This document shows positions 8,179 to 29,242 of a DNA stretch of 64,000 nucleotides, one piece after another; the first letter of the stretch is position 1, and each line of letters starts with the position of its first letter. A model generated the notes under the pieces. It had not been told where the DNA came from, did not search any database, and saw only the letters and a program-made list of their open reading frames with translations. Origin of the DNA: Anaerolineae bacterium (lineage in GTDB: Bacteria; Chloroflexota; Anaerolineae; 4572-78; NAK82); assembly GCA_034436775.1 (NCBI GenBank), contig DAOTVI010000067.1, positions 9,173-73,172 of the forward strand, given 5' to 3'. The translations under genes were made by a program, and so were the position numbers.

Positions 8179-8628
8179 ATGCCGGTTTGTCGAGGTGTAC
8201 GAGGGGCCACCACATGTGCAGCGAACACCCGCGAGGCGATCCTGACAGCCACGCGCGAATTATTAGTGCAGATGGTGGAACGTAACGGCATCGCCAGGAC
8301 GGACATCGCCAGCATATTCTTCACCACCAGCCCCGACCTCACGGCAGAATTCCCAGCCCTGGCAGCGCGCGAGCTCGGGTGGAACCACGTCGCTATGCTA
8401 TGCGCCCACGAGATCGCCGTGCCGCATGGATTGCCACGCTGCATCCGCGTGCTGATTCACTGGAACACCGACAAAGCCCCCGAAGAAATTCAACACGTCT
8501 ATCTGCACGATGCGGTGCATTTACGTCCCGATTGGTCAGAAGCAGGCAGTGAAGGATATCGCCTCCCAGATGAGGGCAAGGCTGTACTCGGATCCGCGGA
8601 TAGAAGTGAGGAAGAGGTGCCAAGATGA
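8179..8628 (+). CDS. aroH: Chorismate mutase, AroH class
   Basis: [24 protein letters not shown] and CIRVLIHW blocks typical of AroH-type monofunctional chorismate mutase. An AGGAGAG RBS precedes ATG 8179; the ORF-track start at 8014 adds 55 unrelated residues. About 25 extra C-terminal residues. Confidence 0.8.
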
Positions 8629-9638
8629 TCATTGTCATGCGTATGGGCGCTACCCAGCAGGAGATCGAAGGTGTGGTGGCCCGTGTCCACGAATTGGGCT
8701 TCCGCACCCATCTGTCAAAAGGCGAAGAACGGACCATCATCGGGATCATCGGTGATGAGCGTCCTTTGGACAAGGACGCCCTGGCACGAATGCAAGGGGT
8801 GGAGCGGGTTGTCCCCATCTTGCATCCATTCAAGCTGGCCAGTCGAGACTTTAAACCCCATGACACGATCATCGAGATCGCCGGACACCCGGTGGGCGGC
8901 AAACAGCTCACCATCATAGCCGGTCCATGTGCCGTTGAGAGCCGAGCGCAGATCCTGGAAACGGCCCAGCTGGTCAAAGAGGCCGGCGCCCATATGCTGC
9001 GCGGCGGCGCCTTCAAGCCGCGAACCTCCCCCTATAGCTTCCAAGGGCTGGGTGAGGAGGCCCTGGTGTATCTCGCTGAGGCACGGGAGCGCACCGGTCT
9101 GCCCATCGTGACCGAGGTGATGTCGCCCGAGCAAGTGCCGCTGGTCGCAAAGTATGCCGACATCTTGCAGATCGGCACACGCAATATGCAGAACTATGCC
9201 CTTCTCCACGCCGTTGGCGAAGCTGGTTTCCCGGTGCTGCTCAAGCGAGGCATGATGTCCACAATTGAGGAACTGCTGATGAGCGCGGAATACATATTGT
9301 CACACGGCAATCACAAGGTGATCCTGTGTGAGCGGGGCATCCGCACGTTTGAAACGTACACGCGCAACACGCTGGACATCAACGCCATCCCGGTGCTCAA
9401 GGAGCTGACCCACCTGCCCGTCATTGTGGATCCCAGTCACGCCACCGGCAAGTGGAGCTTGGTCAGTGCCGTCTCACGCGCTTCGATAGCTGCCGGCGCG
9501 GATGGATTGATCATCGAGGTGCACCCCAATCCGGAAAAAGCCCTCTCCGACGGTGGACAGTCCTTGCGCGCGGCGCGTTTCGCCGAATTGATGAAACAGC
9601 TCGCACGGGTGAGCGACGCGGTCGGACGCACGTTGTAA
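8625..9638 (+). CDS. 3-deoxy-7-phosphoheptulonate (DAHP) synthase, type I-beta, with an N-terminal ferredoxin/ACT-like regulatory domain
   Basis: Core blocks [27 protein letters not shown] and VDPSHATGK. About 75-aa N-terminal extra domain. ATGA overlap with the aroH stop. Confidence 0.9.
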
Positions 9639-9728
9639 GTGCGCAGCGCGTCCATTGGCTGGATCGTCTGTTTCCCACTACAATATGGGGAAAGCACATA
9701 GCGACACAACAGCCATTCTCAGGAGATC

Positions 9729-11534
9729 GTGATGGGCCGCTCGGATTACCCGGAGAGTCATTTATATCGTCTACGCCATTCCGCCTCCCATGTCATGGCG
9801 CAAGCGGTTTTGGAGATGTTCCCCGAGGGCAAGCTGGCCATCGGGCCGGCCATTGAGGACGGCTTCTACTATGATTTCGACCTTCCGCGCTCACTCAATC
9901 CAGACGACTTGGTCGCCATTGAGCGGCGCATGCGCGAGATCATCGCAGCTGATTACAAGTTTGTGCGCCGTGAGATCACACCCGATGAAGCCCGCCGCAT
10001 TTTCGCCAACCAACCCTACAAGCTGGAGCTGATCGAGGGTCTGGTGTCCGGCAATTTGGACGAGGACGGCGAGGCCTCTGGTGGCGGTGAAGCCACCGTG
10101 ACCCTGACAACGTACCGCCACGACAACTTCGAAGACCTCTGTCGCGGTCCGCACCTGGAAAGCACTGGGCAGATTAACCCCGACGGCATCAAGCTGCTCC
10201 GGGTGGCCGGCGCCTATTGGCGTGGCGACGAGCGCAACCCGATGCTGCAGCGCATTTATGGCACCGCCTGGGAGACGGCGGAGGAGTTAGCAGCCTATCT
10301 CAAGCGCCTGGCCGAGGCAGAAAAGCGCGATCATCGGCGTCTGGGCACCCAGCTGGACCTTTTCAGCATCCACCCCGATCAACTGGGAGGTGGTCTGATC
10401 CTCTGGCATCCCAAGGGCGCCTTGATCCGCCACCTGATCGAGGACTTCTGCAAGCGGGAACACCTGGCAAACGGCTATGACCTTGTCTATTCACCCCATA
10501 TCGGTCGCAGTGCCCTTTGGGAGACGAGCGGGCATCTGAGCTACTACCGCGAGAATATGTACGCCCCGATGGAAATCGAGGGGCAACAATATTACTTGAA
10601 GCCGATGAACTGCCCATTTCATATATTGATTTATAAGAGCGCCCTGCGCAGCTATCGCGACCTGCCGTTGCGTTTTGCCGAATGGGGCACCGTGTATCGT
10701 TACGAGCGCAGTGGGGTGCTGCATGGACTGTTGCGTGTGCGCGGATTCACCCAAGACGACGCGCACCACTTCTGTCGTCCCGACCAGATGCCTGCGGAGA
10801 TCGATTTTGTGCTCAATTTTTCCCTGTATTTGCTCCGCTCGTTCGGCTTTGAGGAGTTCAGCGCTTATCTGAGCACGCGCCCGGGTGAGCGCAAAGCGGT
10901 CGGCGCTATCGAACAGTGGCACGCTGCCGAAAAAGCGCTGGAAGACGCGCTGAAGCGCACCGGCATCCCCTATGAAATCGACGAGGGAGGCGGTGCTTTC
11001 TACGGTCCTAAGATCGACCTCAAGGTGAAAGACGCGCTCAATCGCGAGTGGCAGCTGACCACCATCCAGTTCGATTTCAACCTGCCGGAACGTTTTGACC
11101 TGACTTACATGGGTGAGGATGGACAGCCGCATCGCCCCTATATGGTGCACCGCGCGCTGCTGGGCAGCATGGAGCGCTTCTTCGGCATCCTAATCGAGCA
11201 TTACGGCGGGGCATTTCCCGTCTGGCTGGCACCCATCCAGGCGTTGCTCATCCCGATCGCCGACCGCCATCTTGACTTCGCCCGGCAGGTCGCTGCCCAG
11301 ATGAAATCCGCGGGTCTGCGCGCTGAGGTTGACGCGGGCAGTGACCGCATGGCCAATAAAATCCGCAAAGCCCAGGAACAGAAGATCCCCTATATGTTGG
11401 TGGTGGGCGATCGCGAGGTGGAAGCCGGCACGGTCGCCGTGCGGTTGCGCAGCGGACAAGATTTGGGCCCCAAGCCGGTCAATGAGCTCATTGCGATGAT
11501 TCAGGCAGCGATCGCTGCGAAATCAACTGTATAG
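9729..11534 (+). CDS. thrS: Threonine--tRNA ligase
   Basis: Full-length ThrRS similarity: editing-domain start RHSASHVMAQAV, class II core (e.g. HRALLGSMERFFGILIEHY) and a C-terminal anticodon-binding domain. It begins at the editing domain, so there is no N-terminal TGS domain. AGGAG RBS present; the start is GTG 9729 or ATG 9732. Confidence 0.95.
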   Translation: MMGRSDYPESHLYRLRHSASHVMAQAVLEMFPEGKLAIGPAIEDGFYYDFDLPRSLNPDDLVAIERRMREIIAADYKFVRREITPDEARRIFANQPYKLELIEGLVSGNLDEDGEASGGGEATVTLTTYRHDNFEDLCRGPHLESTGQINPDGIKLLRVAGAYWRGDERNPMLQRIYGTAWETAEELAAYLKRLAEAEKRDHRRLGTQLDLFSIHPDQLGGGLILWHPKGALIRHLIEDFCKREHLANGYDLVYSPHIGRSALWETSGHLSYYRENMYAPMEIEGQQYYLKPMNCPFHILIYKSALRSYRDLPLRFAEWGTVYRYERSGVLHGLLRVRGFTQDDAHHFCRPDQMPAEIDFVLNFSLYLLRSFGFEEFSAYLSTRPGERKAVGAIEQWHAAEKALEDALKRTGIPYEIDEGGGAFYGPKIDLKVKDALNREWQLTTIQFDFNLPERFDLTYMGEDGQPHRPYMVHRALLGSMERFFGILIEHYGGAFPVWLAPIQALLIPIADRHLDFARQVAAQMKSAGLRAEVDAGSDRMANKIRKAQEQKIPYMLVVGDREVEAGTVAVRLRSGQDLGPKPVNELIAMIQAAIAAKSTV

Positions 11535-11561
11535 CTTTTGGGCTTCGTTCCAGGCCGCATC

Positions 11562-12710
11562 TCACGGCAGGGGTAGAGAGACCCAACGACCTTCCCGAGC
11601 GGAACGATAGGCCGCTTCCATAATTTCCTGCACGCGCATCCCGTCTTCAAAATCGGGCGGTCCTGGCTGGCCCTTCACCAAGCTGGCGATAAAGTCGAAC
11701 TGGCTGGCGACGTGGTAGCGCAGCCAGCCGATGGCGAACTTGGGGCCGGGCAGTACCGCCGGCGCCGGATAGCGCTGGACACTCTCGACCGCCTTAAATC
11801 CGCGATTGCCGCCCAGAGGCGCTTCCGGATCGCGTGCGTCGAAGACGTATAGCCAGTTGGGATCCATCAAGTTGAAACGCAACGCCCCCTGCTGTCCGTA
11901 GATCTCGATGCGCATGTCATCATTCGTGCCCGTCGCCAGCCGGCTGGCCTCGACGGTGCCGAGGGCGCCGTTCACAGTGCGCAGAGTCAACATCGCCAGA
12001 TCGTCCACTGTCACCGCGGCACGGCGCTCGGGCTGGCTGGGAAGCGGACGCTCTTTGATAAAAGTCTCCGTGACGGCAAAAACTTCCGCGAAGTCGCCCA
12101 ACAGATAGCGCAACAGGTCGAGCACGTGGGATCCCAGGTCAACCAGCGCGCCACCCCCGGCCGCGGCATCCAGACGCCAGGACATCGGACGGTTGGGATC
12201 GACATATCCCGAGTGGAGATAACAGGCGCGGAAGCTGAACACCCGTCCCAAAAATCCTTCTTCGACCAGCTGCCGGGCGCGCATCAGCGCGGGCACGAAG
12301 CGCAGGTGAAAGGTCATCCGGTGTTGTTTGCCGGAGCGCCGCGCTTCGGCCAACATGTCGCGGGCCTGCTCCAGGCTCGCCGCCAGCGGTTTGTCGCAGT
12401 ACACATGCTTGCCCGCCCGCAGGGCTGCTATCACCACTTCATAATGCAGGTGATTGGGCACGCAACAATCGATGACGTCAATGTCCTCGCGCGCGACCAC
12501 CTCACGCCAGTCGGTGCTGCCAAACGCATATCCAGCCTGATCAATGGCCTTCTGCACCGACTCACGGCTGGCTGCACTCACGCCCACCAACCTGACCCGT
12601 GCCGGCATCGGGTCGTACATCAGCGGCAACGACTGATAGGCCAGGGTATGCACTTTGCCGATGAAACCATAGCCGATCAGCCCAATGCGGATCTCCGGAA
12701 GCGCACCCAT
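11562..12710 (-). CDS. Gfo/Idh/MocA family NAD(P)-dependent oxidoreductase
   Basis: N-terminal Rossmann motif IGLIGYGFIGKVH and a C-terminal alpha/beta domain typical of the family. Confidence 0.85.
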   Translation of the reverse strand: MGALPEIRIGLIGYGFIGKVHTLAYQSLPLMYDPMPARVRLVGVSAASRESVQKAIDQAGYAFGSTDWREVVAREDIDVIDCCVPNHLHYEVVIAALRAGKHVYCDKPLAASLEQARDMLAEARRSGKQHRMTFHLRFVPALMRARQLVEEGFLGRVFSFRACYLHSGYVDPNRPMSWRLDAAAGGGALVDLGSHVLDLLRYLLGDFAEVFAVTETFIKERPLPSQPERRAAVTVDDLAMLTLRTVNGALGTVEASRLATGTNDDMRIEIYGQQGALRFNLMDPNWLYVFDARDPEAPLGGNRGFKAVESVQRYPAPAVLPGPKFAIGWLRYHVASQFDFIASLVKGQPGPPDFEDGMRVQEIMEAAYRSAREGRWVSLPLP

Positions 12711-12776
12711 TCGTCATCACCTCGACAATTGAAAGCCCTATCCGATCGCTCACCCTGGTTGCAAACTTATTTCGGC

Positions 12777-14273
12777 TTATAAAGTCTTCAAGAGACCCGT
12801 GCGTTCGTTGAACTGCTTGATCAGCGCGTCAATCTGTTCCACCTGATTTTGGATATCCGTCCAATAATTCGGGTCGTACCACTGCGCCTGGAGCTCTTCG
12901 GCGCTCTTGCCCTGTTGCTCCACCCATGTGTAATACTTCAGGTTGTGAATGCGTTTGCGGCCGTAGTAGCTCAATTCTTCCATATACTCGATCCCCTGCC
13001 CGCGCAGATAGCGATGATACGCGACGATGGCATCCTCGCGGGTGAATGGGCCGCGCTCTGCGGTCAGCTCGCGCAGCCGGCTGGCATACATCTCCATCGA
13101 GTCGGTCAACACCGTCAGCACGACATCGTGGTTACCCAGCTCATAATACCGCGCAAACTTGATGCACGACAGCAGATTGGCCACCCCGGAAATGCCCAGC
13201 AGGGGCAGGCTCGCGATCGTCTGTTCGGGGACGCCCTGAGAGGCGAGATAAGCCTGCCCGGCCGGCTCGTTGAAGAGCCGAATCAGTTGCATGGTGGCTT
13301 CGTCGTCAATCGCCATCACCATATCGGTGTTCTTGACATTATGGATCCAGGGGACATGCTTGTCGCCGATGCCCTCAATGCGATGGGCGCCGAACCCGTT
13401 GTACAGCAACGTCGGGCACTGCAATGCTTCGCTGGCAGCGATTTTGCTGCTCGGGAAAACCTGCTTCAGATAATCCCCACAGCCGATGGTCCCGGCTGAA
13501 CCGGTGGTCAACACCACGCCGCGGTAGGTGTCCCCGGAGCGCAGCTCCCGCTGCAACACTTCCTCCATCGCGTGACCGGTGACATAATAATGCCACAGGT
13601 AATTGCCCATTTCATCGAACTGGTTGAAGATCACAATGTCCTCACCGGAGCGGCGCAGCTCCCAGCATTTGTCGAAAATCTCCTTGACGTTGCTCTCGGT
13701 GCCGGGTGTCTTGATCACCTCTCCCGCCACGGAAGCGAGCCACTCAAAGCGCTCCTGACTCATCCCTTCCGGCAGGATGGCGATCGAATCACAGCCCAAC
13801 AATGCGGAGTCATAGGCACCGCCCCGGCAATAGTTGCCTGTCGAAGGCCACGCGGCTTTTTGGCTGGTCGGGTCGAACTGACCGGTGACCAGGCGCGGCA
13901 CCAGACACCCAAACGCGGCACCCACCTTATGGGCACCTGTCGGGAACCATTTTCCCACCAAGGCGATGATGCGCGCCTCAACTCCGGTCAAAGAAGCGGG
14001 AAATTCGAGATAGTTCACCGCGCCAAAGCCGCCTCCCGTCGGCACCGGTTCATTCTTCCACGTGATGCGGAACAGATTGAGCGGCGTGATATCCCAGAGG
14101 CCGATGCTCGCGAGCCTGCGTCGGATCGCTTCTGGAACCGTCGTCGGATCGCGCTGTTGGGCCAAGGTGGGAATGATGATGCCACGCTCACGGGCACGTT
14201 GGACGGCTCGCGCCAGGCGATCTTCATAGATGGTCAAATCGATCATCTCGTTTCTCCGCGAAGTAGATTTCAC
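12777..14273 (-). CDS. Fold-type II PLP-dependent enzyme (cysteine synthase/Trp-synthase-beta-like) with a long C-terminal extension, function unknown
   Basis: Candidate PLP lysine in FPTGAHKVGAAF, glycine loop TTGSAGTIG, and HRIEGIGDKHVP. About 150-aa helical C-terminal extension. The start lies 3 nt after the upstream stop. Confidence 0.75.
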   Translation of the reverse strand: MKSTSRRNEMIDLTIYEDRLARAVQRARERGIIIPTLAQQRDPTTVPEAIRRRLASIGLWDITPLNLFRITWKNEPVPTGGGFGAVNYLEFPASLTGVEARIIALVGKWFPTGAHKVGAAFGCLVPRLVTGQFDPTSQKAAWPSTGNYCRGGAYDSALLGCDSIAILPEGMSQERFEWLASVAGEVIKTPGTESNVKEIFDKCWELRRSGEDIVIFNQFDEMGNYLWHYYVTGHAMEEVLQRELRSGDTYRGVVLTTGSAGTIGCGDYLKQVFPSSKIAASEALQCPTLLYNGFGAHRIEGIGDKHVPWIHNVKNTDMVMAIDDEATMQLIRLFNEPAGQAYLASQGVPEQTIASLPLLGISGVANLLSCIKFARYYELGNHDVVLTVLTDSMEMYASRLRELTAERGPFTREDAIVAYHRYLRGQGIEYMEELSYYGRKRIHNLKYYTWVEQQGKSAEELQAQWYDPNYWTDIQNQVEQIDALIKQFNERTGLLKTL

Positions 14274-14276
14274 GCG

Positions 14277-15308
14277 CTATTGGGCCGCTTGTCTCGCCGC
14301 TGGTGCCGACGCCTCCTCAAAGCCGATCGCCTCGCGCAGGACATAGAGGGGGCGTCCTTTCACTTCATCGTAGATGCGTCCCAAGTATTCGCCGATAATA
14401 CCCAGCGTGATCAGCTGCACGCCACCGATAAACAGGACACACACCAGCGTGGTTGCCTGTCCGTAAAAGGGGGCAGCTCCCATAAAGAGGCGGGTGAAGA
14501 TGACCACCACGGCGGCGACCGCGCTCAGCGCGGCGATCGTAAAGCCCAGGTAAGTGGCCAGCTGCAGGGGGAGATAACTGAACCCGGTGATGGCGTCCAG
14601 GGCGAATTTGAACATTTTCCGGAAGGGATAATGGGTCTGGCCGGCAAAACGCTCTTCGCGCACGTAGTAGACGCCGGTCTGGCGAAAGCCCACCCAACTG
14701 GTCATGCCCCGGATAAAGCGATGCCGTTCGCGCATCTGTTTGAGGGCATCCACCACCCGGCGGTCCATCAGGCGGAAGTCCCCCGTGTCCAGCGGAATCT
14801 TGACATCGGTGATGCGATAGATCAGGCGATAAAACAAGGAAGCGGTGAACTTCTTGAACCAGCTTTCGCCTTTGCGATGGGTGCGCACGGCATAAACGAC
14901 TTCGTAGCCCTCTTTCCATTTTTGCACCATGTCCAGGATGACCTGGGGAGGATCCTGGAGGTCGGCGTCAATAATCACCACGGCATCACCGCGGGCGAAA
15001 TCCAGGCCAGCTGTGACCGCGATCTGGTGGCCGAAGTTGCGCGCAAAGTCCACAATTTTGACCCGCGCATCCCGTTGATGGAGCTCGCGCATGATTTCAG
15101 GGGTGCGATCGTGACTGCCATCGTTGACCAGCACCAATTCCCACGGTTCACCCAGGCTGTCCATCACGGCACTGATGCGCTTGTGCAGCTCGTATAACAC
15201 CCCTTCCTCATTGTAACACGGGGCGACAATGGAGTAGCGTGGCCGTTCCGTCACAGAACACCTCCCTGTGGTATAGCTGGCGTTTCGTCCCCCGGGTGAC
15301 CTCCTCAC
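14277..15308 (-). CDS. Family 2 glycosyltransferase, polyprenyl-phosphate glycosyltransferase-like (GtrB/ArnC/DPM1 type)
   Basis: [20 protein letters not shown] and [10 protein letters not shown] motifs plus two C-terminal TM helices. GTG 15308 overlaps the upstream stop (GTGA); an alternative GTG start is at 15254. Confidence 0.85.
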
Positions 15309-16612
15309 ACCGAGGAGGACTCCTCAGCGCGGTTGAATTGTTGCACCACCCTCCTCACGTCCTCAAACGTCTTCTCGACGACGTGCGCACGCGTTCCCAC
15401 CTGTTCAACGGACCTCATCGCGCTTTGTACATCCTTGAGCCCATTGCCGGTGACCAGCACCACGATGCGCTCATCAGCGTGTACCTGCCCATTGTTTAGC
15501 GCTTTCAGCAATCCGGCATAGGCGGCGGCAGCGGCCGGCTCGGCAAAGACCCCACTGCCGCGTGCCAGCGCCGGTATCGCTGCCAGGATTTCGTCATCGC
15601 TCACACAGATGAAAGCGCCATTGGTATCGCACACCGCTGCCATGGCTTTCAGGCGGTCGCGCGGCAGGCCAGCGCTGATGCTATCCGCGACGGTATGGGC
15701 CTCAATGGGCGGTTTGGTGAGCACATCTTCGCGGTTGATCCAGGCTTCGTAGAGGTAAGCAGAACCCGCGGCTTGTACACCCATCAAGCGCGGTATATGG
15801 TCGATCCATCCCAGATGATATAAATCCCGGAAGCCCTTGTGCAGCCCACCGATGATACAACCATCGCCAACGCTGACAAAAACCGCATCGGGCGCCTGCC
15901 ATCCCATCTGTTCACAGATTTCCAAGGCGACCGTCTTTTTGCCTTCGGTCATATAGGGATTGTAAGCGGTGTTGCGATTGTACCATCCATACTCTTGAGC
16001 AGCAAGGAGACACAGCTCAAAGGCGTCATCGTAGCTGCCTCGCACCAACAGGACCTGGGAACCGAACACCAGCAGCTGGGCGATCTTGGCCGGCGGCGCA
16101 CTCTGAGGCACGAAAATGACATTGCGTTGCCGTACACTGGCACATAAGCCGGCGAGGGCGGCGGCAGCGTTGCCCGTGCTGGCCGTCGTGATCACGTCCG
16201 CCCCCTTCTCACGGGCTTTCACGACGGCGATGGCACTGGCCCGGTCCTTCAGGGAACCGGTGGGTTGTCGGCCATCGTCCTTGATCCACAAGCCCTTGAG
16301 CCCCAGCTCGGCCGCGAGGTGGTTTGCGCGCATCAGCGGCGTCCATCCGACCGGCAACGGTGGCACCGGTGCGTCGGCGCGGATCGGCAACAGCGGTTTG
16401 TAGCGCCACATGGAATAGTCGGTGCTATGCAGCAAATCTCCTTGGCTGATGCGTCGCGCGATCAACGCATAGTCGTACTGGACATCCAAGATGCCTTCGT
16501 CTCCGTGGTGCGGGCAGACGTATTCCACCTCATCGGGTCGGTACTCTCGCCCACAAATCAGGCATCTCAAACCTGCGATGTGTTCCAGGCCCGATCTTGG
16601 TTGGGCTGGCAT
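15305..16612 (-). CDS. Threonine synthase family PLP enzyme with an N-terminal zinc ribbon
   Basis: CLICG...CPHH ribbon, PLP-lysine motif TGSLKDRAS, and [10 protein letters not shown]. Start moved to ATG 16612 (MPAQPRSG), which is preceded by GAGGAGAG. Confidence 0.8.
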
Positions 16613-16701
16613 AGATCTCTCCTCACAATCACAAACTGCCAAGAAACTGGCCAAGTGATGTTCTGCGCAGGCCTCATAGAGGGTTCTTTCCTGAGCGGGG
16701 G

Positions 16702-17388
16702 TCAGGCGGAGGCATCAGCTGTGGATGGAGATCTTCGGCGATATTCCTCGATCATGGTGCGCAGCTGGGCGATATGCTCACGTTCGTGTTCAAGCATGCG
16801 CCGGATCACCTTACGCATTGTCCACTTCTCACCCTGATGGTGAACGATTTTGCCGCGCTCAGCTTCGGGCACGGCGCGCAGCCGCTCCAGCGCGATGCCA
16901 CGCGTCGCCGCCAGGCGGTATAACGGTGCCTCGGGCCATTGCTTGAGACGCTCCGTGTACCACAGATCGGATTCGGCCAGATGACACACGATCTGGGCGA
17001 CCGACCAGGCGTCCTCGGATGGCCGCCAATCCCACATCTCCTGAGGCATGCAACGCAACAAGTCCATCAGCTCCTGGCGCGAAATCGCCATCCAGCGGAA
17101 CATGGTCTCCAGCTCATTGGGCTGAACGGGGTCATAGTCGGTGACAAAAGTGGTGTCTTCGGTCTCTTCGAATTCCAACAAGATCGGTTCATCAGCCTTA
17201 GGCACAGGCTCCCCGACATCCCGCAACAGGGAGAGGTACTGCTCAATGGCAACGCGGATGTTCGCTTTGGCTTCCTCAACGGTCCTGCCTCGCGCCGAGG
17301 CACCGGGCAGGGCCGGCACATGCGCCACCGGTCCTTGCACCGTGATCGGGTCGCCACGTGTTTCGATATACACCAGATATCTGGCCAT
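16702..17388 (-). CDS. HicB-like (UPF0150) N-terminal domain fused to a DinB-family four-helix-bundle domain
   Basis: N-terminus ARYLVYIETRGD...VPALPGASARGRTVEEAKANIRVAIEQYL is HicB-like. The C-terminus carries DinB histidines (CHLAESDLWY, HEREHIAQL). ATG 17388 is preceded by GGAGGAG; the ORF-track start is a TTG at 17400. Confidence 0.7.
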   Translation of the reverse strand: MARYLVYIETRGDPITVQGPVAHVPALPGASARGRTVEEAKANIRVAIEQYLSLLRDVGEPVPKADEPILLEFEETEDTTFVTDYDPVQPNELETMFRWMAISRQELMDLLRCMPQEMWDWRPSEDAWSVAQIVCHLAESDLWYTERLKQWPEAPLYRLAATRGIALERLRAVPEAERGKIVHHQGEKWTMRKVIRRMLEHEREHIAQLRTMIEEYRRRSPSTADASA

Positions 17389-17460
17389 GTGCTCCTCCAA
17401 AATATCGAAGAGGGCCTTATAGAGTGTGCCCCAAGGCGGCTCAATATCGGGAAGACCCCG

Positions 17461-18420
17461 CTAATCGGGGGTGATATGCGTGCCGGTCTCACCGTTCAGG
17501 GCACGTTCGATGTTCTCCGGGTTGGTGATAATGGCATACCGACCGCCTTGCTCCAGGTAGTTGATGATCGCCTCGATCTTAGGCGCCATGCTTCCCCTCT
17601 TGAAGTGGATTCCCTCGGCGAGATAGCGCTTTGCCTCGCTCAAGGTCATGTGATCCAGCCAGCGTTGGTTCGGTGTGCCGAAGTGAAGCGCCACCTTTTC
17701 CACGGCCGTGCTGATCAGCAACAAATCGGCGTTGAGAGATGCGGCGAGCAACCCAGAGGCATAGTCCTTGTCAATGACGGCAGCCACCCCTTTGAGGTGG
17801 CCCTTTTCATCGGCCACCACCGGGATGCCACCTCCCCCCACGGTGATCACCACGGCGCCGGCATCCAGCAGCAGCTGGACCACATCCAGCTCGACCACCC
17901 GCTGGGGCAAGGGAGAGGCGACCACACGGCGCCAGCCGCGGCCGGCATCTTCGATCACGTTCCAGCCGTCCTTCTCGCGTCGTTCCCGGGCCAACTCTTC
18001 GGTCATAAACGAGCCGATCGGCTTTGAAGGGTTCTGCCAAGCCGGGTCATTCGGGTCCACTTCCACCTGAGTCACCACCGTCACCACCGGCTTGGCGATG
18101 CGCATGTCCAGGAGGTGGTTGCGCAGGGTCTGTTGGAGCGCATATCCAATGGCGCCCTGCGTGTCGGCACCACACACATCCAGCGGGACTTCGTGCAATT
18201 CGTGGCGCGCCAGTTCGGAACGTCGCAGGATAAAACCTACCTGGGGGCCATTTCCGTGGGTGAGGGCAATTTCCCATCCCATCCGCACCATTTGGGCGAT
18301 GTGATAGGTGGTCTCGTTGGCGGCTGCATACTGGTCCTCCACGGTTTGGTGCGCCGAATCTTTGATGAGCGAATTGCCACCAATCGCCACCACCGCAACC
18401 TTGCGACCTGTACGCTTCAT
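17461..18420 (-). CDS. arcC: Carbamate kinase
   Basis: VVAIGGNSL N-terminus, GHGNGPQVG-type loop (THGNGPQVG) and GGGGIPV. Start moved to ATG 18420 (MKRTGRKV) behind AGGAGAG. Confidence 0.9.
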   Translation of the reverse strand: MKRTGRKVAVVAIGGNSLIKDSAHQTVEDQYAAANETTYHIAQMVRMGWEIALTHGNGPQVGFILRRSELARHELHEVPLDVCGADTQGAIGYALQQTLRNHLLDMRIAKPVVTVVTQVEVDPNDPAWQNPSKPIGSFMTEELARERREKDGWNVIEDAGRGWRRVVASPLPQRVVELDVVQLLLDAGAVVITVGGGGIPVVADEKGHLKGVAAVIDKDYASGLLAASLNADLLLISTAVEKVALHFGTPNQRWLDHMTLSEAKRYLAEGIHFKRGSMAPKIEAIINYLEQGGRYAIITNPENIERALNGETGTHITPD

Positions 18421-18432
18421 CTCTTTCTCTCC

Positions 18433-18481
18433 TGCACGCGATGCGCGTGCATCCGGGCGGCGCTTCCTACCGCCCGGATGC
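18433..18481 (-). other. Two overlapping strong hairpins in the carbamoyltransferase-carbamate kinase intercistronic gap
   Basis: GCATCCGGGCGG (18449-18460) / CCGCCCGGATGC (18470-18481) form a perfect 12-bp stem. TGCACGCG..CGCGTGCA (18433-18451) overlaps it and abuts the arcC RBS. No U-tract. Confidence 0.5.
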
Positions 18482-18507
18482 ACTTTGGCTACCCTCCTTC
18501 AGACGGG

Positions 18508-19545
18508 TCACAAATTGCCCATGGTCAGGGCCATCACCGCTTTTTGCACGTGCAAACGGTTCTCGGCCACTATATAAATCACCGAGTTAGGGCCGCTGGC
18601 GACTTCGTCGGTCACTTCATTGCCGCGATCGACCGGCATGGGATGGGTGAAGATAGCGTTGTCGGTGCGGGCCATCTTCGCGGCATCCAATGTCCAACCC
18701 TGATACGAGAGGGCCTTGGCGATCTCTTCCTGTTTCTTAAATTGGCCGTCCTGGTATGCGTGGGGGCTCATCCAGTTCCGCGCGTAGACGATATGCGCAC
18801 CGTCCATGCAGCGCACCGGATCGTTGGTGATCTCCAGCGAGGTGCCCCACGCTTGGCAGTTCTGCCTGGTCCATTCGATCACTTCAGGGTCGAGGTCATA
18901 GCCCTCGGGGCGCGCGATGGTGATATGCATCCCGAAGCGGCTGGCGATCAAGAGCGCTTCCTGGACGCTGCACCAGCTGCGTGCGAGAGCACCTTGTGCC
19001 CAGGTGAGCACGAACTTCTTGCCCTGCAGGCGGCTGTAGTCCGGCCGGCCCGGGCCGCCACCGAACCATTCGGCCCAACCCATCACATCCGCCAGGCCCT
19101 GGAAGGGGTGAAAGCGGTCGTCGGCCATGTTGACGACCGGCACATCCGCCCAATAGGCATACTCGCGCAGCAGCTCGGTGCCGGCACCGTAATAGGGGAC
19201 TTTGTCCTCCAAGATGCGGATGCCGATCCCACAGGCATAGCGTGACATCACCTTGGCCGCATCTTCGATCGTCTCCCCCGCCGTGGTGGCCGTCTTGAGG
19301 CGCATGCTTTCCGGCACCAAGAATTGCGCATGGCCACCCAGCTCGGTAGCCGCACACTCAAACGATTGCCGGGTGCGCACCGAAGGGTTGTAGAAGAACA
19401 TGAAGAACGTCTTGTGGGCCAGGATCTTGGTCCAGCGCTCGGAAAAGCGATCCCGTTTCATCCGCACGGCCAGATCCAGCACCGCGTCGAGCTCCGGTTT
19501 GCTCCACTCCTGGGTGGTGATCAGATCGCGCCCGTAAAGGTCCAT
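18508..19545 (-). CDS. Aspartate/ornithine carbamoyltransferase-superfamily enzyme, unassigned subfamily
   Basis: Carbamoyl-phosphate motif SVRTR and HPFQ are present. The third motif is THPMPVDR (ATCase-like HPxP) rather than HCLP. The start lies 2 nt after the upstream stop. Confidence 0.8.
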   Translation of the reverse strand: MDLYGRDLITTQEWSKPELDAVLDLAVRMKRDRFSERWTKILAHKTFFMFFYNPSVRTRQSFECAATELGGHAQFLVPESMRLKTATTAGETIEDAAKVMSRYACGIGIRILEDKVPYYGAGTELLREYAYWADVPVVNMADDRFHPFQGLADVMGWAEWFGGGPGRPDYSRLQGKKFVLTWAQGALARSWCSVQEALLIASRFGMHITIARPEGYDLDPEVIEWTRQNCQAWGTSLEITNDPVRCMDGAHIVYARNWMSPHAYQDGQFKKQEEIAKALSYQGWTLDAAKMARTDNAIFTHPMPVDRGNEVTDEVASGPNSVIYIVAENRLHVQKAVMALTMGNL

Positions 19546-19547
19546 GC

Positions 19548-20621
19548 TTAGAGTCGCCCTCCCATGGTCAAAGTCATCACCGCTTTCTGCACGTGCAAGC
19601 GATTTTCGGCCTGCTCATACACCGCAGAGCGCCATCCCCGTTGGACATCGGTGTGGTCAATCACGTCGTTGTCAACTTCCCAGCCGCGGTCGGCCGGCAG
19701 ACAATGGAGATAGATCGCCTCGTGATCGGCGGTTTCCATCAAACGACGGGTCATCTTCCAGTGCTTGTAGCTTTCGTTGATCGCTTTGGCCTTCTGTTCG
19801 TCTCCCTCACCCACCGGGGGTTTGAAGAAGCATTTTGGCGCCCATGCCTTGGGGTATACCACGTGGGCATCCTTAAAGGCGCTTTCGAAATCGTGGGTGA
19901 TGGTGAAAGAAGCGTTGTTCATCCGGGCGTTGGCCTGACATGCCGCGATCACTTCGGGATCGAGTTCGAACTCGGGCGGATGGCATAGCACGGTGTCACA
20001 ACCCATCATCGAAGCGGCGATGATGGCGCTTTGCGGCACGGCGCGCGGCTTATGAATGCTGGGCGAGTAAGCCCAGCTCATCACGAATTTGATGCCCTTG
20101 AAGGTGCCGAAACGCTCCCAGGTGGTCAGAATATCGGCCAGAGCCTGGAAGGGGTGGTACTTATCGTCCTCCATATTCAACACGGGGATGTCGGCCCAGC
20201 GAGCGAACTCGCGGATGAGCATATTCGCGGCGCCATACACCCAGTCCACCGGATCTCCATAACAGCGGATCGCGATGCCATCCCCCATACGACTCAGCAC
20301 GCGCGCAACGTCGGAGACGCGTTCAGTGGAGTAGGCTACCTCTTTGCCTTCCAGCGCCGGCGTGTAAATCTTCTCCGGGTCGAGATAGTGGGCGTGGCCA
20401 CCCAGCTGGGTCATGCCGGCCTCGAAGCTGTTGCGCGTCCGCAAGCTCTGATTGTAGAAGATCATAAACAGGGTCTTGGCACGCAGCAGGTGATCGTGCA
20501 ACTCCCCCATCGCATAGCGTCTCTTCAGATCGCGGGCGCAATCAAGGATGGTTTCGACTTCCTCTTTGCTCCATTCCAGCAGTGTGATGAAATCCTTGCC
20601 CTTGAAGCTATCGGTTCTCAT
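19548..20621 (-). CDS. YgeW-like (knotted) carbamoyltransferase
   Basis: SLRTR, HPFQ and HCLPADR motifs. Blocks MSWAYSPSIHKPRAVPQS and YPKAWAP match my recollection of E. coli YgeW (MTWAYSPSYGKPLSVPQ, YPKSWAP). Confidence 0.8.
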   Translation of the reverse strand: MRTDSFKGKDFITLLEWSKEEVETILDCARDLKRRYAMGELHDHLLRAKTLFMIFYNQSLRTRNSFEAGMTQLGGHAHYLDPEKIYTPALEGKEVAYSTERVSDVARVLSRMGDGIAIRCYGDPVDWVYGAANMLIREFARWADIPVLNMEDDKYHPFQALADILTTWERFGTFKGIKFVMSWAYSPSIHKPRAVPQSAIIAASMMGCDTVLCHPPEFELDPEVIAACQANARMNNASFTITHDFESAFKDAHVVYPKAWAPKCFFKPPVGEGDEQKAKAINESYKHWKMTRRLMETADHEAIYLHCLPADRGWEVDNDVIDHTDVQRGWRSAVYEQAENRLHVQKAVMTLTMGGRL

Positions 20622-21088
20622 AGATCGTTCTCCTCAAAAGATGGGATGATAACATCCTGGTTGTTTTGCTCATTTTTCTCCAATCCAATACTGGGACGGG
20701 TGTTCTTTGGGAACATTCCGTTCTCCTCCGGTAGAGTTTTCCAGAACTATACCAGAATTCAGCCGTTTGCGCGAAAACGCTCAGGCTCAAATCCCTGCCC
20801 TTTTTGCGGTGGACTCAATACGGGTCTCTATCAAACCCACCACCTCCGTACCTCGTCCGGCTCGGCGTGGATGGAGGCGCCCGGGTCGGCATCTTTGCGG
20901 CGCATCTCCGGCAACCGCATCGCGCGCAGGGCGGCGGCCAGCTTTTCGGCGGTCCGTTTGGGGCGCGGGCCGGCGCCCAACTGCGCTGCCTGGCTGCCCC
21001 AGACGATTTTTATTTCCGCAACGCCCGGAAGATCTCCAGGGCGCGGAAACCTTTCAAGAGTTTTGGGCGACGTCCAGGGGAAGCGAAA

Positions 21089-21583
21089 CTATTCGCGGTC
21101 GGCCACCATTGTCTGCAATATGGTCAGGTAACGCTCAGCGTCCGACCGGGATCGGAATTCGCCAAACCTCATTTTAGGTCCGCCTGCAATTTTGAGAGCA
21201 ATACCGTAAGTGTCCGGTCCACTTTCCCATTCTATTACCCTGATTTTGAGCGACTCGATCTGGTCAAAAGAATAAATTTTCTGACCTGCGGTGAAAGCCG
21301 ATTTGAATTGGTGTGTGAGTTGACGTTCCGAAGCATCGAATAGAAGACGATGGCTGGAGAGCAAGAGAGCCACCGCAATCGAGCTCAACACGGCAAGCAC
21401 AATCCAAATCGCATAAGAGATGCTCGCGTCAAACTCGAACACTTTCTCCTGAATGAACGCGATGAGCAGTCCATAGACTGCCGTGAACCCGATTAACGCG
21501 GCCAACCAAACAAGGAAACGTTTCAGCGGCGGATAGGAATCGGTGAATTCGATGGTATGAGATGTTTGTTTTACGGTGTCCAT
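21089..21583 (-). CDS. Hypothetical membrane protein (2 TM plus a small C-terminal domain) in a low-GC patch
   Basis: 164-aa ORF with two hydrophobic helices (FLVWLAALIGFTAVYGLLIAF, AIWIVLAVLSSIAVALLL). It is the only long ORF in a region of about 45-48% GC. Weak RBS. Confidence 0.5.
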   Translation of the reverse strand: MDTVKQTSHTIEFTDSYPPLKRFLVWLAALIGFTAVYGLLIAFIQEKVFEFDASISYAIWIVLAVLSSIAVALLLSSHRLLFDASERQLTHQFKSAFTAGQKIYSFDQIESLKIRVIEWESGPDTYGIALKIAGGPKMRFGEFRSRSDAERYLTILQTMVADRE

Positions 21584-21656
21584 GGTAGCAAACAGCCTTT
21601 CCGTGTTTTGGGAGTCATCGGCGCGCCGGTAGCCAGGTCAGCCACGTCAGCCACGC

Positions 21657-21680
21657 CGACAAAATTGTGGAATTTTGTCG
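21657..21680. promoter_or_regulatory. Perfect 9-bp inverted repeat (candidate operator or hairpin)
   Basis: CGACAAAAT tgtgga ATTTTGTCG, 75-100 bp upstream of the 21583 start. It is immediately preceded by the tandem 9-mer GTCAGCCAC x2 (21638-21655). Confidence 0.3.
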
Positions 21681-21857
21681 TAGGACGGCACCACAGCGAC
21701 GATGGCAGGCAGGCCACCTTTGCCGACCTGGAAATTCAACAAGGATTGTCGTTTTTTTGGTGTTGTCGGTCACAGTGATACCGTTCTGGGTGGTGTTCGT
21801 CTCGAGCAATCAGCGCCAGTACGCTCGGCGCGAGATACCCGTGGTTACGGTCTCGGA

Positions 21858-22838
21858 TTAAAATCGCTTGATGATCGGGTCATACGTCGGCGCGTTATTG
21901 GGCCCGCCCACGCGACGCTGGCCGTGACTGGGGCCGCCGGACGCGCCGGACATATCCCGTACCGTCGTACCGCTCCCCTCGTCCAGGGGATACAGCCCTA
22001 CCGTGTTCCCGTCGGGTACGAAAGGTGTGCTGGGCGGCGTAAAGTCGCCCGTGTAGCGCACCACGTTGGAGATGCGCACCTCATCCACCCAGCCGCTGAA
22101 GGAGGGATAGGTGCTCGGGTCATAGTCGTGCTTCTCCGCGCCGATGACCAGGAACGGTTCGTTGACCCAGCCGCCAGTGATGGGGCGGCCGACGCGGTAG
22201 GAGATGTTGCCCGTTGGGCCGCTATGTTGGCGATCCAGCACACCGTTGACAAAAATGCACATCTCGCCGTTGGTGCGGCGGGTCACAGCGACGTGGTGCC
22301 AGGTATTGGCACTCAGCGTCGTGTTCCCGCAGATGGTGTAGCCGCTAGTGCCGTTGTGTGCGCCGAAGGCGATCCGTCCGCCGTAGAGGGAGAGGCCGTA
22401 GTCGCCGTAATCGGGCACACCGAAGATGTCGCGGTCAAAGATGATGTTGCCGTTGATCCAGGTGTCGTTGCCCTCGGTGCAGGGGCCGCTGGCATTTTGC
22501 CCCGGCGCAAAGCGCAGCCAGAACTCCAGGGTGAAGTCCGTCGCGCCGACGTTGACCGGCAGCGAAATGCCCAAGGTGTTGCTCATCGGGATTTTGACCC
22601 GGTCAATGTCGCCGCTGCCGGTGCCGTAGAAACGAAGGGAGTAGGTATTGGGAACGGGCGAGGTTGGCGTGGACGGTGCCCGCAACACCACCGGCAGGTA
22701 GGCGCGCGGAGTGAGCGATGGAGCAGTCTGCAGAACGTTCAAAGGGGACGAAGCCAGGGCAACCAGCGTCAATGCCGCGCCGGTCAAAACGGTCACCCAT
22801 CCGCGCATCACCGATGATGGAAATGGTGTTTGTTTCAT
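21858..22838 (-). CDS. Secreted LamG/concanavalin-A-like lectin domain protein
   Basis: Signal peptide ([18 protein letters not shown]). The LamG-type core includes [25 protein letters not shown] and [13 protein letters not shown] 22838 is preceded by AGGAG; the ORF-track start at 22955 overlaps the upstream gene. Confidence 0.8.
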
Positions 22839-22848
22839 TATGGATCTC

Positions 22849-25734
22849 CTATCGGTCCCCCCGCAGCACCAGCGGCAGCCAGAGGCGCGGGGTGATCCGT
22901 TCGTTGTCAAAGGCCTGGATGGTGGCCACGATCTTCTGGATGGAATACAGGTCACCCCGCCCCCAGGGGCGGTCCAGCCAGCGGCGCAACTGGCTGCGCC
23001 CCTCGCCCAGGATGTAGGCGTGGGCCATAAAGTGCGACCAGCCGGCGATCGGCGCCGTGTAAGCCGTCTCGCCCTCCTCGGCGTGGGCGCCGGCGCGCGT
23101 CAGATACCACCAGCGCAGGCCGTCGCCCGTCTCGCGCGAAAGCACGTGCGCGGCGGCCAGGCCGTCGGTCTGCTCGCGCAGGTACAGTCCGATCTCCGGC
23201 GTGATCCCGAAGAAGACCGGCAGGTACCAGCCCTCAAAGTTGCCCCACTCCGGCTGGTTGTCGCGCGGCGTCCAGTACTGGGTGATGGATTTGGCATAGG
23301 TGATGTAGGGCGTGATGACCCGCCCGGCGGTCAGCGCGCTCACGGCGGTGCTCACGGCCTGGGTGTAGGTGATCGAGGTCTGGCCGAAGAGTTGCCACGC
23401 CATGCGCGCGTAGCCGATCACACCGGCGATGTCGGCGTAGTAGGGCAGGTCGTTGGCCCGCGCGTTGTAGAGGGCAGTCAGGTCGGTCCAGTTGTTCTGT
23501 ACCAGCGCCCAGTCGCCGGTATTCTTCGCCCACAGCCAGACGGCGTACAGGGAGATGGGGCTGGCGGCCGGCGGCGGCCAGTTGTTCAGGTTCCGGCGGA
23601 TGTCGTCGGGCACGGGGTAGAGTTCGCGCGGCGCGCTGTTCTTCAGCCAGTCCCCGCCCCAGGGCATGCCCTGCCAGGGCGGATAGCGCGCGATCACGCC
23701 CGAGACGTACTGCCTCACGCTCACCTGCAGAGTCGGGTCCAGGTAGGGATAGGCCATTGCCAGCGTGAGCAGGAGTTCGCCGGAGTCGTGCCAGACGGCG
23801 TTGCCATGGCTGTCGTAGGTGACCGAGGGCGGTTCCGGCGGCTGCGTGGAATTGTGCGGCCACATGGCCGGGTTGCTGAAGCCGCGCTCAAAGTAGTAGG
23901 GCATCGGGTAGGGCGTCAGCGCGATCAGCGCGCGCACCTCGGCGTGCAGGCGCGCCACCAGGTCGGCCGGAGGGTTGGGCGCCGGGGTGGTCAGGTCCAG
24001 CGTCACGTAATCGGTGAGCGGGCGGGTGGTGGTCACGACGGGCGGCGTGGGCGGGGGCGGCGGGGGCAGGGTCCGGGTGTAGACCCGCGGCGCGGGGCAG
24101 GCGCTGCCAGGACGCGTAGCGATGCCGGCCAGCCCGCCCTCAATCACGCGCCAGTAGATCATGTTGTTCGCCACCACCGCACCGGCGCGCGAGTGGCCCT
24201 CGTTCACGCGCGGCGAGGGGAAGGGATAGGCCGGGTCGCGGGGATTGCCACTCAGGGGAAAGAAGGGGTTGGGACCATCTGGACCACAACCAGAACCGGG
24301 CCCGCCGCCGCACTCGGGCCAGATGTTGGAGACGTTGCCGATGTGCACCAGCGACCCGCTGATGGCGTTCGTCAGACTGATGCCGCCCAGGCGTTCCCAG
24401 TTATCCACCAGCAGGATGTTACCGCCCATTGTCAGCACCGCTGGCTCGTCGGAAGTCAGGCGAAATTCATAGTTGAAGTAGGAGCGCGGATAGTCGCGCG
24501 TGCGCAGGCCGATGATCTGAGTGAGCATTTGCGTGTTCAGCAGACCCAGCTCGGCATCATATTGCGAGGAAACGTGCACCGATGAGCCGGTAGTCTGAAT
24601 GCCCTGGCGGGCGCGGTACATCACGTAGGCCGTGTACGGCGCGCTCGCCCGCACCACCGGCATTGCGGGCACATCGCTGTTGCCGAAGGTGTAGAGCACC
24701 GGCGCCACTCCGCGCGTGATGCCGGTGGTCGCGTCCAGCACAAAGAGCGTCTGCTTGTGCGGGTTAGAGGCCAGGTAGTTCTGGATATGCGGCCGGATGG
24801 CGTTCCAGTCGGCGTCCCAGTCAGAGTTAACGGCGCCGGCCCGGTTCATCACCTCGTCGCCTTCGTGCAAAAGTTGCCAGAGGGCGTAGAGCGGCTGCGA
24901 GCGATAGATCACCGTGTCGCTGAGCACCACCGGGTAGCGATCGGTCAGGCTCTGGCCGTAGAGTTGCGTCTGCCAGACCCACGCGCCGGTCTCGGCGTTC
25001 ACGGCGAAGGCGCGGATGGCCTCGTCCCCGGCAAAGATCAGCCGTCCATCGCGGCTGAGAGCCGGCGTGGTGAGGATGGGGGCGTCGGACTGGTATTGCC
25101 AGATCACCGCGCCGTCGCGCAGGTTCAGCGCGGTCAACCGGCCATCGGTGGCCGCGACGACGACGTGGCCGCGCGCCGCGTCCATCAGCGGGGCAGTGGC
25201 GCTGCGGCCGGTGAAGCGCTGCCAGCGCAGCGCGCCGGTGGCGGCGTCCAGGGCGAAGGTGTTGCCCCCGTGTGTGCTGAAGACCACCGTGCCGCTCATC
25301 ACGCCCGGGGAATGGCGGATCGGGCTGCCGTCGCCGGCAAAGGTCCACAGCGAGGCGCCGGTGCTGGCGTCCCGCGCGTAGAGCACGCCGTCCAGCCCGC
25401 CGATGAAGAGCCGGCCGGCGGCCACCACCGGCTGGGCGCGTGAGGCGAAGGGCACCTCGTACCATTTCCAGATGTAGCAGTACGGTGGATTGACCTGAAG
25501 GGGCGAGTAGTTGCTGCGCTGTGCGTCGCGGCCCAGTTGCGGCCAGTCCCGGTCAGGGATCGTCTCCTGCCCGGCGATGCCGGGCGTAGAGAGCAGGCCG
25601 GCAGAGGGGGCAGCGGAGAGCGTTTGGGGGGAGTCGCCGTCAGAGGACAGGGCGAGGGCCCACGCACCCAGTCCGCTGACGAGCGCCATTAGGATGCGTG
25701 CGAGAGTTGACCGGTAAAAGTTGCCGGATACCAT
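22849..25734 (-). CDS. Secreted 961-aa protein: N-terminal PQQ-like beta-propeller plus a large C-terminal, probably all-alpha, domain
   Basis: N-terminal signal anchor. Repeated propeller blades ([41 protein letters not shown], ...). The C-terminal half is rich in W/Y helix-repeat-like blocks. It ends ...[12 protein letters not shown]. Confidence 0.8.
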
Positions 25735-25820
25735 GTTGATTTCTCTCCAGACGACGTAGCATAGGATTCATCCGGTGCTACAGAACTTCTATCCAAGAGT
25801 ACCCCATCACCTTGCTCTTT

Positions 25821-26057: not shown

Positions 26058-26082
26058 CGTTTCATCTCCTGCCTGAAGTTCT

Positions 26083-29124: not shown

Positions 29125-29199
29125 CCGAGCACCTCCTGAATGGGTTATGCCTCCCCTGCAAAAAGGTCTCCTCATCACAGAGTGTACTCATGGGTTAAG

Positions 29200-29224
29200 A
29201 AAAAAGCTATGCCCCCGGCGTAGC
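29200..29224 (-). terminator. Rho-independent terminator after tRNA-Leu
   Basis: Minus strand reads GCTACGCC ggg GGCATAGC (7 of 8 bp paired) followed by TTTTTT. It lies 19 nt downstream of the tRNA 3' end. Confidence 0.5.
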
Positions 29225-29242
29225 TTAGCCTCTTAGAAATCA

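Follow-up and report, generated by a model that had tools for sequence, protein, structure and literature searches.

Paired carbamoyltransferases, carbamate kinase and two PLP enzymes in Anaerolineae: a possible lower module in a variant of reductive purine breakdown

The reductive urate pathway and a related gene string in Anaerolineae

The reductive route of urate breakdown in gut bacteria was established by two 2025 studies (PMC12507026; bioRxiv 10.1101/2025.04.24.650524), and it is compared here with a gene string encoding two carbamoyltransferases, carbamate kinase and two pyridoxal 5′-phosphate (PLP) enzymes in 64,000 nt of Anaerolineae bacterium contig DAOTVI010000067.1 (hereafter the window). 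In the gut-bacterial route, XdhD/XdhAC reduces urate to 2,8-dioxopurine, which is then dearomatised by YgfK or UacX, and SsnA and HyuA open the rings to produce 2,3-diureidopropionate (DUPA). One ureido group of DUPA undergoes phosphorolysis by YgeW, YqeA uses the carbamoyl phosphate to make ATP, YgeY hydrolyses the other ureido group and YgeX converts diaminopropionate into pyruvate (PMC12507026; bioRxiv 10.1101/2025.04.24.650524). Which of the two ureido groups is attacked by YgeW is disputed between the two studies (PMC12990295). One of them also noted variant clusters in Chloroflexota, with neighbours scored by Pfam only (PF00185, PF00291), a procedure that would not separate the two carbamoyltransferases described here from YgeW, or either PLP enzyme from YgeX. 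A literature search found no paper on paired transferases of this kind.

The minus strand of the window carries eight consecutive open reading frames (ORFs) from 20621 to 11562, convergent with thrS. An earlier note on this DNA had placed them on one strand and assigned them to families; an ORF check confirmed all eight at the stated coordinates, and Pfam confirmed each assignment:

19548..20621, minus strand: CT1, a carbamoyltransferase of 357 aa (Pfam OTCace_N and OTCace; motifs SLRTR, HPFQ and HCLPADR)
18508..19545, minus strand: CT2, a carbamoyltransferase of 345 aa (Pfam OTCace_N and OTCace; motifs SVRTR, HPFQ and HPMPVDR)
17461..18483, minus strand: carbamate kinase (Pfam AA_kinase; passes TIGR00746 and NF009007)
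16702..17400, minus strand: HicB-like/DinB_2 fusion protein (Pfam DinB_2, 52 bits; HicB-like match below cut-off)
15305..16654, minus strand: ThrC-fold PLP enzyme (Pfam PALP, 252 bits)
14277..15308, minus strand: GT2, a polyprenyl-phosphate glycosyltransferase (PgfS/ArnC-like; Pfam Glycos_transf_2)
12777..14273, minus strand: CysK/CBS-fold PLP enzyme with N- and C-terminal helical extensions (Pfam PALP, 53.6 bits)
11562..12710, minus strand: Gfo/Idh/MocA oxidoreductase, last in the gene string (Pfam GFO_IDH_MocA)

We propose, with about even confidence for and against, that CT1, CT2, the kinase and the two PLP enzymes belong to a version of the reductive urate (2,8-dioxopurine) pathway used by environmental bacteria and make up its lower part, in which ATP is gained. 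DUPA would arise when the reduced purine ring is opened, as in gut bacteria, and CT1 would phosphorolyse one of its ureido groups to release carbamoyl phosphate. CT2 would phosphorolyse a second ureido substrate, most simply the remaining group of the mono-ureido intermediate, and the kinase would use each carbamoyl phosphate with ADP to produce ATP, NH3 and CO2. One PLP enzyme would then replace YgeX in converting 2,3-diaminopropionate into pyruvate and ammonia, the ThrC-fold enzyme being favoured for this role. We infer the substrates, the order of the steps and the assignment of the PLP enzymes from pocket similarity and genomic context. This window encodes the lower module only. The earlier note had regarded the substrates of YgeW as poorly defined and the substrate of this locus as one that could not be named from sequence; the first statement is now out of date, since both 2025 studies identify DUPA as the YgeW substrate (PMC12507026; bioRxiv 10.1101/2025.04.24.650524), and a substrate can thus be proposed here.

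The gut urate cluster of E. coli and Clostridium sporogenes (XdhD-YgfM, YgfK, SsnA, HyuA, YgeW, YqeA, YgeY, YgeX) likewise places a carbamoyltransferase directly upstream of the kinase and includes a fold-type II PLP enzyme, and relatives of the module described here co-locate with SsnA, YgfK, XdhD-like, HyuA-like and YgeY proteins. However, the single 396-aa YgeW of the gut cluster is replaced by two shorter transferases of separate clades, ThrC-fold and CysK/CBS-fold enzymes stand in place of YgeX, and YgeY is mostly missing. A GntR/UTRA regulator takes the place of the sigma-54 regulator YgeV, and for uptake a Bmp-type ATP-binding cassette (ABC) system takes that of UacT. The hosts also differ, being Chloroflexota and Acidobacteriota, and the upper pathway is unlinked to the module in this window.

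Family placement and active sites of the two carbamoyltransferases

CT1 and CT2 each contain both Pfam domains of the transcarbamylase superfamily (PF02729 and PF00185) with E ≤ 1e-33, placing them within it. The carbamoyl-phosphate motifs of the superfamily are SxRT, HPxQ and HxLP, to which an Arg of beta4 is added. The sequence motifs reported earlier are present in both, as is the 2-nt gap between the CT1 stop and the CT2 start (TAA-GC-ATG). Both proteins fall below every curated NCBIfam cut-off checked, which covered N-acetylornithine (AOTC), ornithine (OTC), putrescine (PTC), YgeW and aspartate (ATC) carbamoyltransferase models. The top curated model for both is AOTC (NF003384, cut-off 288), at 270.4 for CT1 and 241.9 for CT2, while OTC (TIGR00658, cut-off 280.85) gives 236.8 and 196.3, and the YgeW models give 159.6 and 108.9 (NF005538, cut-off 453) and 151.3 and 106 (TIGR03316, cut-off 500), respectively. 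The nearest solved structures by sequence are Xanthomonas AOTCase and Pyrococcus OTCase at approximately E = 1e-55. CT1 and CT2 are 41% identical to one another, with at least 65% identity within each clade. In a neighbour-joining tree the short internal branches among CT1, CT2, AOTC and YgeW are unresolved, and clade assignment is based on hidden Markov model (HMM) cut-offs and residues, not on tree topology. By these measures CT1 and CT2 are each predicted to form a clade of their own within the knotted group, and they are apparently two old, separately constrained, catalytic paralogues.

Diagnostic residues from a 2015 transcarbamylase review (PMC4581275) were mapped onto 68 CT1 and 84 CT2 orthologues, and the residues that bind carbamoyl phosphate (S/R/T, R, H..Q and a late Arg) are invariant across both sets. 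CT1 carries six of the seven proposed second-substrate residues of YgeW (YTCase; PDB 3Q98, 2YFK): D126, S188, K191, K258, D311 and E315 correspond to YgeW D124, S200, K203, K270, D334 and E344, and E151 replaces Q160. Of the six shared residues, only D126 varies among the CT1 sequences, occurring in 56 of the 68. CT1 also shares the YgeW motifs of the proline loop and the start of the 240's loop (WAYSPS..KP..VPQ and VYPKxWAP), its C-terminal domain is 41% identical to YgeW compared with 32% to AOTC, and, like YgeW, it is linked to a kinase in a putative catabolic context. In contrast, the N-terminal domain is nearer OTC and AOTC, overall identity to YgeW is 34%, the YgeW HMMs are failed, the 80's loop has the AOTC length, and the extra N- and C-terminal helices and long 240's insertion of YgeW are missing; the alignment shows both CT1 and CT2 to be without the 13-16 residues at the N-terminus of YgeW, its 240's insertion and its C-terminal tail. 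The label "YgeW-like" that CT1 received in the earlier note can therefore be kept for the putative substrate pocket and loops, which resemble those of YgeW and make CT1 a "mini-YgeW" in this respect, but not for family membership, in which CT1 scores 159.6 against 453 and has AOTC as its best model.

CT2 retains S55, R57, T58, R110, H146, Q149 and R330 for carbamoyl phosphate binding, all invariant in the 84 orthologues, and has HPMP where the superfamily has HxLP. Its pocket residues A141, A186, R189, R256, D306 and E310 vary little or not at all, the 80's loop is short, and the "proline-rich" loop contains no prolines. Compared with the proposed YgeW second-substrate site, only D306 and E310 are kept, and Lys is changed to Arg at two sites.

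Database names of these families ("ornithine/N-acetylornithine carbamoyltransferase", along with "cysteine synthase A" for PLP enzymes, in the P0001-P0360 annotations) would suggest arginine metabolism, either as a catabolic OTC with carbamate kinase in the arginine deiminase (ADI) route or as an anabolic OTC/AOTC variant, and the top-scoring curated model points the same way. In a paper on a Thermoflexus genome, two genes named as ornithine carbamoyltransferases are placed in the ADI pathway, one of them numbered consecutively with a carbamate kinase gene; the paper reports that adenine and adenosine were the only medium compounds that were consumed (PMC8129789). AOTCase 3KZC and N-succinylornithine carbamoyltransferase (SOTCase) 2FG6 are the best matches among curated models and PDB sequences, at approximately 37-39% identity and similar lengths, and CT1 shares with them the extended 120's loop and the Lys at the start of the 240's loop that are features of the knotted group. 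However, CT1 and CT2 lie under all OTC, AOTC and PTC cut-offs, and the DxxxSMG ornithine loop of OTC is absent from both, with K/R-x-W in place of D-x-W-x-S-M-G. The AOTC markers W77, E92, N185 and K302 are also absent from both by residue mapping (at the positions of Glu92, Asn185, Lys302 and Trp77, CT1 has T, P, E and T, and CT2 has G, S, E and a gap), as is the SOTC arginine, R278. No arginine deiminase or arginine biosynthesis gene occurs among the gene families recurring in at least four of the related loci described below, and a search for arginine genes beside solitary CT2 copies found none. Motifs, scores and context thus contradict the arginine-metabolism reading, which we consider very improbable, and the two transferases do not show the combination of OTC/AOTC membership and arginine synteny that would have undone the proposal of a separate ureido-compound pathway.

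The identification of the third gene as carbamate kinase stands, with the window protein exceeding the cut-offs of the equivalog model TIGR00746 (366.8 over 358.25) and of NF009007 (397.4 over 266). YqeA, the E. coli kinase encoded in the urate cluster, is 51% identical to the window protein, whose start is probably Met22 (18420).

The conserved neighbourhood and its PLP enzymes

A scan of one genome per species with CT2 identified relatives encoded in 536 species genomes, the best 80 of these matches belonging to Chloroflexota of several classes and to nine Acidobacteriota. Conservation of the neighbourhood, which the earlier note proposed to check in Chloroflexota and Deinococcota, was thus found in the former and also in Acidobacteriota, while no Deinococcota occur among the 80 best loci. 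CT1 and CT2 homologues at 72-94% identity are abundant in metagenomes, where those with a named organism are from Anaerolineae or other Chloroflexota; CT1-seeded look-ups additionally returned contigs with proteins of the type IX secretion system (T9SS) type.

By tblastn, 69 of 85 loci encode both CT1 and CT2, and the arrangement is far beyond chance; the adjacency on which the earlier proposal depended is conserved in relatives. Several of the 16 loci with CT2 only are contig ends, whereas four with ample flanking sequence (L016, L045, L058, L079) truly lack CT1. Among 64 pairs, 26 have a gap of at most 20 nt between the two genes, and nine are interrupted by NYN, 23S-rRNA-IVP or pyruvate:ferredoxin oxidoreductase (PFOR) genes. 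Inserts at the CT1/CT2 or CT2/kinase junctions include a 23S-rRNA-IVP four-helix-bundle gene (L018, L037, L044), an NYN-domain gene (L055, L056, L083), a PIN gene (L004/L005) and genes for PFOR subunits (L014, L050, L053, L061). These junctions therefore tolerate the insertion of small selfish-looking genes or of a whole PFOR operon. The PFOR genes lie between CT1 and CT2 in four loci, a placement that would fit pyruvate as an end product. A solitary CT1, with neither CT2 nor the kinase, is found on a metagenomic contig (L090; JGI 3300037245, 1-21074), next to PreA-like DHO_dh+Fer4 proteins, a creatininase-fold protein, a GntR-FCD regulator, enolase, a glycerate-kinase-like protein, a Bmp ABC transporter and a faint ADI-family protein, and may represent another variant pathway.

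The close pairing raises the alternative that CT1 and CT2 are subunits of one hetero-oligomeric transcarbamylase catalysing a single YgeW-type step, with the other ureido group hydrolysed by YgeY or another amidase whose gene lies close by or elsewhere. The genes are adjacent on the same strand and in 26 of the 64 pairs no more than 20 nt apart (two in the window), a transcarbamylase active site includes the 80's loop of an adjoining subunit (PMC4581275), and YgeY is encoded alongside both transferases in three loci (L063, L064, L066). However, both proteins retain the complete invariant set of catalytic residues, nine loci have unrelated genes between the two, and each transferase also occurs alone, CT2 in the four loci above and CT1 in L090. 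We know of no heteromeric transcarbamylase made from two catalytic paralogues, and overall we consider this explanation rather improbable.

Recurrent neighbours were identified by clustering 1,016 proteins from 86 loci, with recurrence counted in 83 non-redundant loci, 41 of which are at least 15 kb ("long loci"). Genes were called with a codon log-odds model trained on confirmed genes; longest-ORF calling was unusable at 60% GC, choosing antisense ORFs over real genes. Antisense ORFs of this kind overlap the real genes of the window on the plus strand (18115-19245, 376 aa; 13572-15197, 541 aa; 16939-18027, 362 aa), some exceeding real genes in length, and were rejected as high-GC artefacts by their poor codon-model scores and His/Arg/Gly-rich composition. 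Carbamate kinase is present in 69 of the 83 loci, the ThrC-fold enzyme in 34 (22 of the long loci), the CysK/CBS-fold enzyme in 30 (24 of the long loci), a GntR/UTRA regulator in 35 and a substrate-binding protein of a Bmp/PnrA-type ABC transporter in 20. Either PLP gene can be found near the pair without the other. The canonical gene order of L088 was reproduced by an independent gene call with Pfam labels.

The earlier note listed the entire gene string and proposed a pathway around the transferases, the kinase and the PLP enzymes, a core that conservation supports. The HicB/DinB, GT2 and Gfo genes, in contrast, recur in five, three and three of the 83 loci, respectively, all close relatives, and are lineage-specific passengers outside the conserved system. 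The slot between the two PLP genes, occupied by GT2 in the window, often holds a metallo-beta-lactamase (MBL)-fold hydrolase and/or a homologue of the DppA-like M55 D-aminopeptidase in other loci (L056, L057, L060, L062, L073, L083, L088), and the D-aminopeptidase fold in this position hints at D-configured intermediates.

Markers of the reductive urate pathway lie within 10 kb of the pair in 22 of the 83 loci, including 16 of the 41 long loci. In these loci SsnA and YgeY score above their cut-offs (566 bits over 444, and 441 over 321), and a truncated copy of YgfK gives 666 bits and 40% identity over approximately 1,050 aa to E. coli YgfK. Other markers near the pair are XdhD-like and XdhA-like proteins, a HyuA-like (hydantoinase-like) hydrolase and a dihydropyrimidine dehydrogenase (DPD)-like reductase in which PreT and PreA are fused, and in L089 adenine deaminase and two further amidohydrolases are encoded directly upstream of CT1. 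All 152 of the 152 OTCase-family proteins across the loci are CT1 or CT2, with no true YgeW, and a YgeX homologue is found in none of the 83 loci. The loci with YgeY initially seemed to have a single transferase, which suggested CT2 as a YgeY replacement, but tblastn found CT2 in these loci as well; YgeY coexists with CT1 and CT2, and CT2 is therefore not a simple YgeY substitute.

The same neighbourhoods could be read as general nitrogen-heterocycle catabolism, with purine genes adjoining a module that degrades another imported ureido compound, such as N-carbamoyl-beta-alanine derived from pyrimidines, allantoate/ureidoglycine or N-carbamoyl/ureido amino acids. In many loci the transferase pair is accompanied by the regulator, the kinase, the Bmp ABC transporter and PLP enzymes only, and ring-opening enzymes are missing; the DPD-like reductase and dihydropyrimidinase-like hydrolase are also enzyme types of reductive pyrimidine degradation, and the CT1 of L090 is accompanied by PreA-like, creatininase-fold and ADI-like proteins. 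However, the recurrent SsnA, YgfK and XdhD-like neighbours are specific markers of the purine route, the CT1 pocket matches the one proposed for YgeW, and fold-type II PLP enzymes suit beta-elimination of diaminopropionate and not beta-alanine metabolism. We regard a different ureido substrate as unlikely.

The ThrC-fold enzyme matches solved threonine synthases with E = 1e-60 at approximately 40% similarity, shares their fold, and keeps the PLP lysine and STGN motif. It passes TIGR00260 (198.4 over 167.1) but not NF006050 (301.3, cut-off 303). Unlike ThrC, it lies within a putative ureido-catabolic operon and carries the changes T88A, S155A/G, R160M/T and N188D. At T. thermophilus positions 88, 155, 160, 188 and 242, with numbering checked against a PDB alignment, 29 of 29 members have A, A/G, M/T, D and V/S/C, where three solved ThrCs (1UIM, 6CGQ, 2D1F) have T, S, R, N and R. 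We take T88, S155, R160, N188 and R242 of T. thermophilus ThrC to surround the substrate phosphate; a literature search on the phosphate-site residues of threonine synthase found nothing. The loss of these presumed phosphate-site residues in all 29 members indicates that the enzyme is probably not a threonine synthase. Since an invariant Asp replaces the phosphate site, the ThrC-fold enzyme is the favoured candidate for the YgeX role of converting diaminopropionate into pyruvate and ammonia; an Asp in this position would suit a cation such as the beta-amino group of diaminopropionate. Similarity to YgeX itself is limited to 25% identity with the E. coli protein over 204 aa (BLAST), with scores of 62.1 against 276 (NF006058) and 49.7 against 532 (TIGR03528).

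The CysK/CBS-fold enzyme gives no match to YgeX and scores 85.2 against a cysK cut-off of 350.95 (TIGR01139). Its fold assignment in the earlier note is upheld, but not its length of 498 aa: the start is probably Met10 at 14246, giving 489 aa, because homologues (75-92% identical) are 486-490 aa long. The AlphaFold2 model (pLDDT 75.6) contains a core of the CBS/CysK type with helical extensions, Foldseek top matches are generic CBS/CysK proteins only, at approximately 23% identity, and the lysine motif and STGN loop are kept. The protein is a conserved partner of the transferase pair and shares only the fold with CysK/CysM.

Among the passengers, GT2 scores 281.9 with the NCBIfam PgfS model and 195.7 with the ArnC-like model, both below cut-off, and the Gfo/Idh/MocA protein is levoglucosan-dehydrogenase-like (311.9, cut-off 650). 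DAHP synthase and threonyl-tRNA synthetase genes (8625-11534, plus strand) are convergent with the operon end, and L006 and L008, the closest relatives, have this flank too; the CT2 of L006, from the Ardenticatenia metagenome-assembled genome (MAG) Nak82, is 99% identical to that of the window. An Rfam scan of 11000-23000 gave no match, and promoter and terminator scans performed no better than shuffles. The region from 22000 to 31000 has a GC content of 0.63-0.67, compared with ~0.59 over the operon, and encodes very large, probably secreted proteins of 961 aa (PQQ-like beta-propeller) and 1031 aa (a DUF5060 trace only), as well as a 365-aa Laminin_G_3 protein. A pyrimidine-nucleoside phosphorylase gene (46845-48257, minus strand) is the sole nucleobase-related gene seen elsewhere in the window.

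Weight of the evidence and implications

Several observations weigh against placing the module in a purine pathway. Homologues of SsnA, xanthine dehydrogenase (XDH), YgfK, HyuA, YgeY and Bmp were not found in the 64-kb window, and approximately a quarter of the long loci are without informative neighbours. YgeY occurs with both CT1 and CT2 in the three Acidobacteriota loci named above (L063, L064, L066). The Bmp transporter encoded in the operons of other loci might take up a ureido compound from a source other than purines. The YgeW second-substrate residues with which CT1 was compared (Q160, K270, D124, S200, K203, D334 and E344) are themselves a proposal and not contacts observed in a complex (PMC4581275). 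The known pathway requires a single PLP enzyme but two are conserved here, the 489-aa enzyme falling outside the steps that it accounts for, and the pathway roles suggested for all members of the module rest on sequence and context.

The module is strongly conserved and uncharacterised, and would be a variant of a pathway that was described only in 2025, for gut bacteria. The earlier proposal of an uncharacterised ureido-catabolic variant akin to purine clusters has gained support, with the core recurring across Chloroflexota and Acidobacteriota and repeatedly near SsnA, YgfK, XdhD-like, HyuA-like and YgeY proteins. A more specific version of the variant purine pathway is that two transcarbamylases act on DUPA, one for each ureido group, yielding two carbamoyl phosphates and hence two ATP per purine ring where the gut route yields one, with a ThrC-fold enzyme recruited as the diaminopropionate lyase. 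Such a higher-yield form of purine fermentation without oxygen would be widespread among sediment, digester and soil members of Chloroflexota and Acidobacteriota; we put this forward tentatively, as a possibility that may well prove wrong.

If the module acts in purine breakdown as proposed, the urate pathway described in 2025 from gut bacteria would extend to abundant environmental phyla, which would have arrived at a different, possibly more energy-efficient, solution of the ureido-cleaving steps. Two regiospecific transferases would also be tools for addressing the dispute over the ureido group attacked by YgeW (PMC12990295). Thousands of metagenomic records are probably misread at present as belonging to arginine, cysteine or threonine metabolism or to the ADI pathway, and such annotations probably mislead pathway reconstruction in Chloroflexota MAGs.

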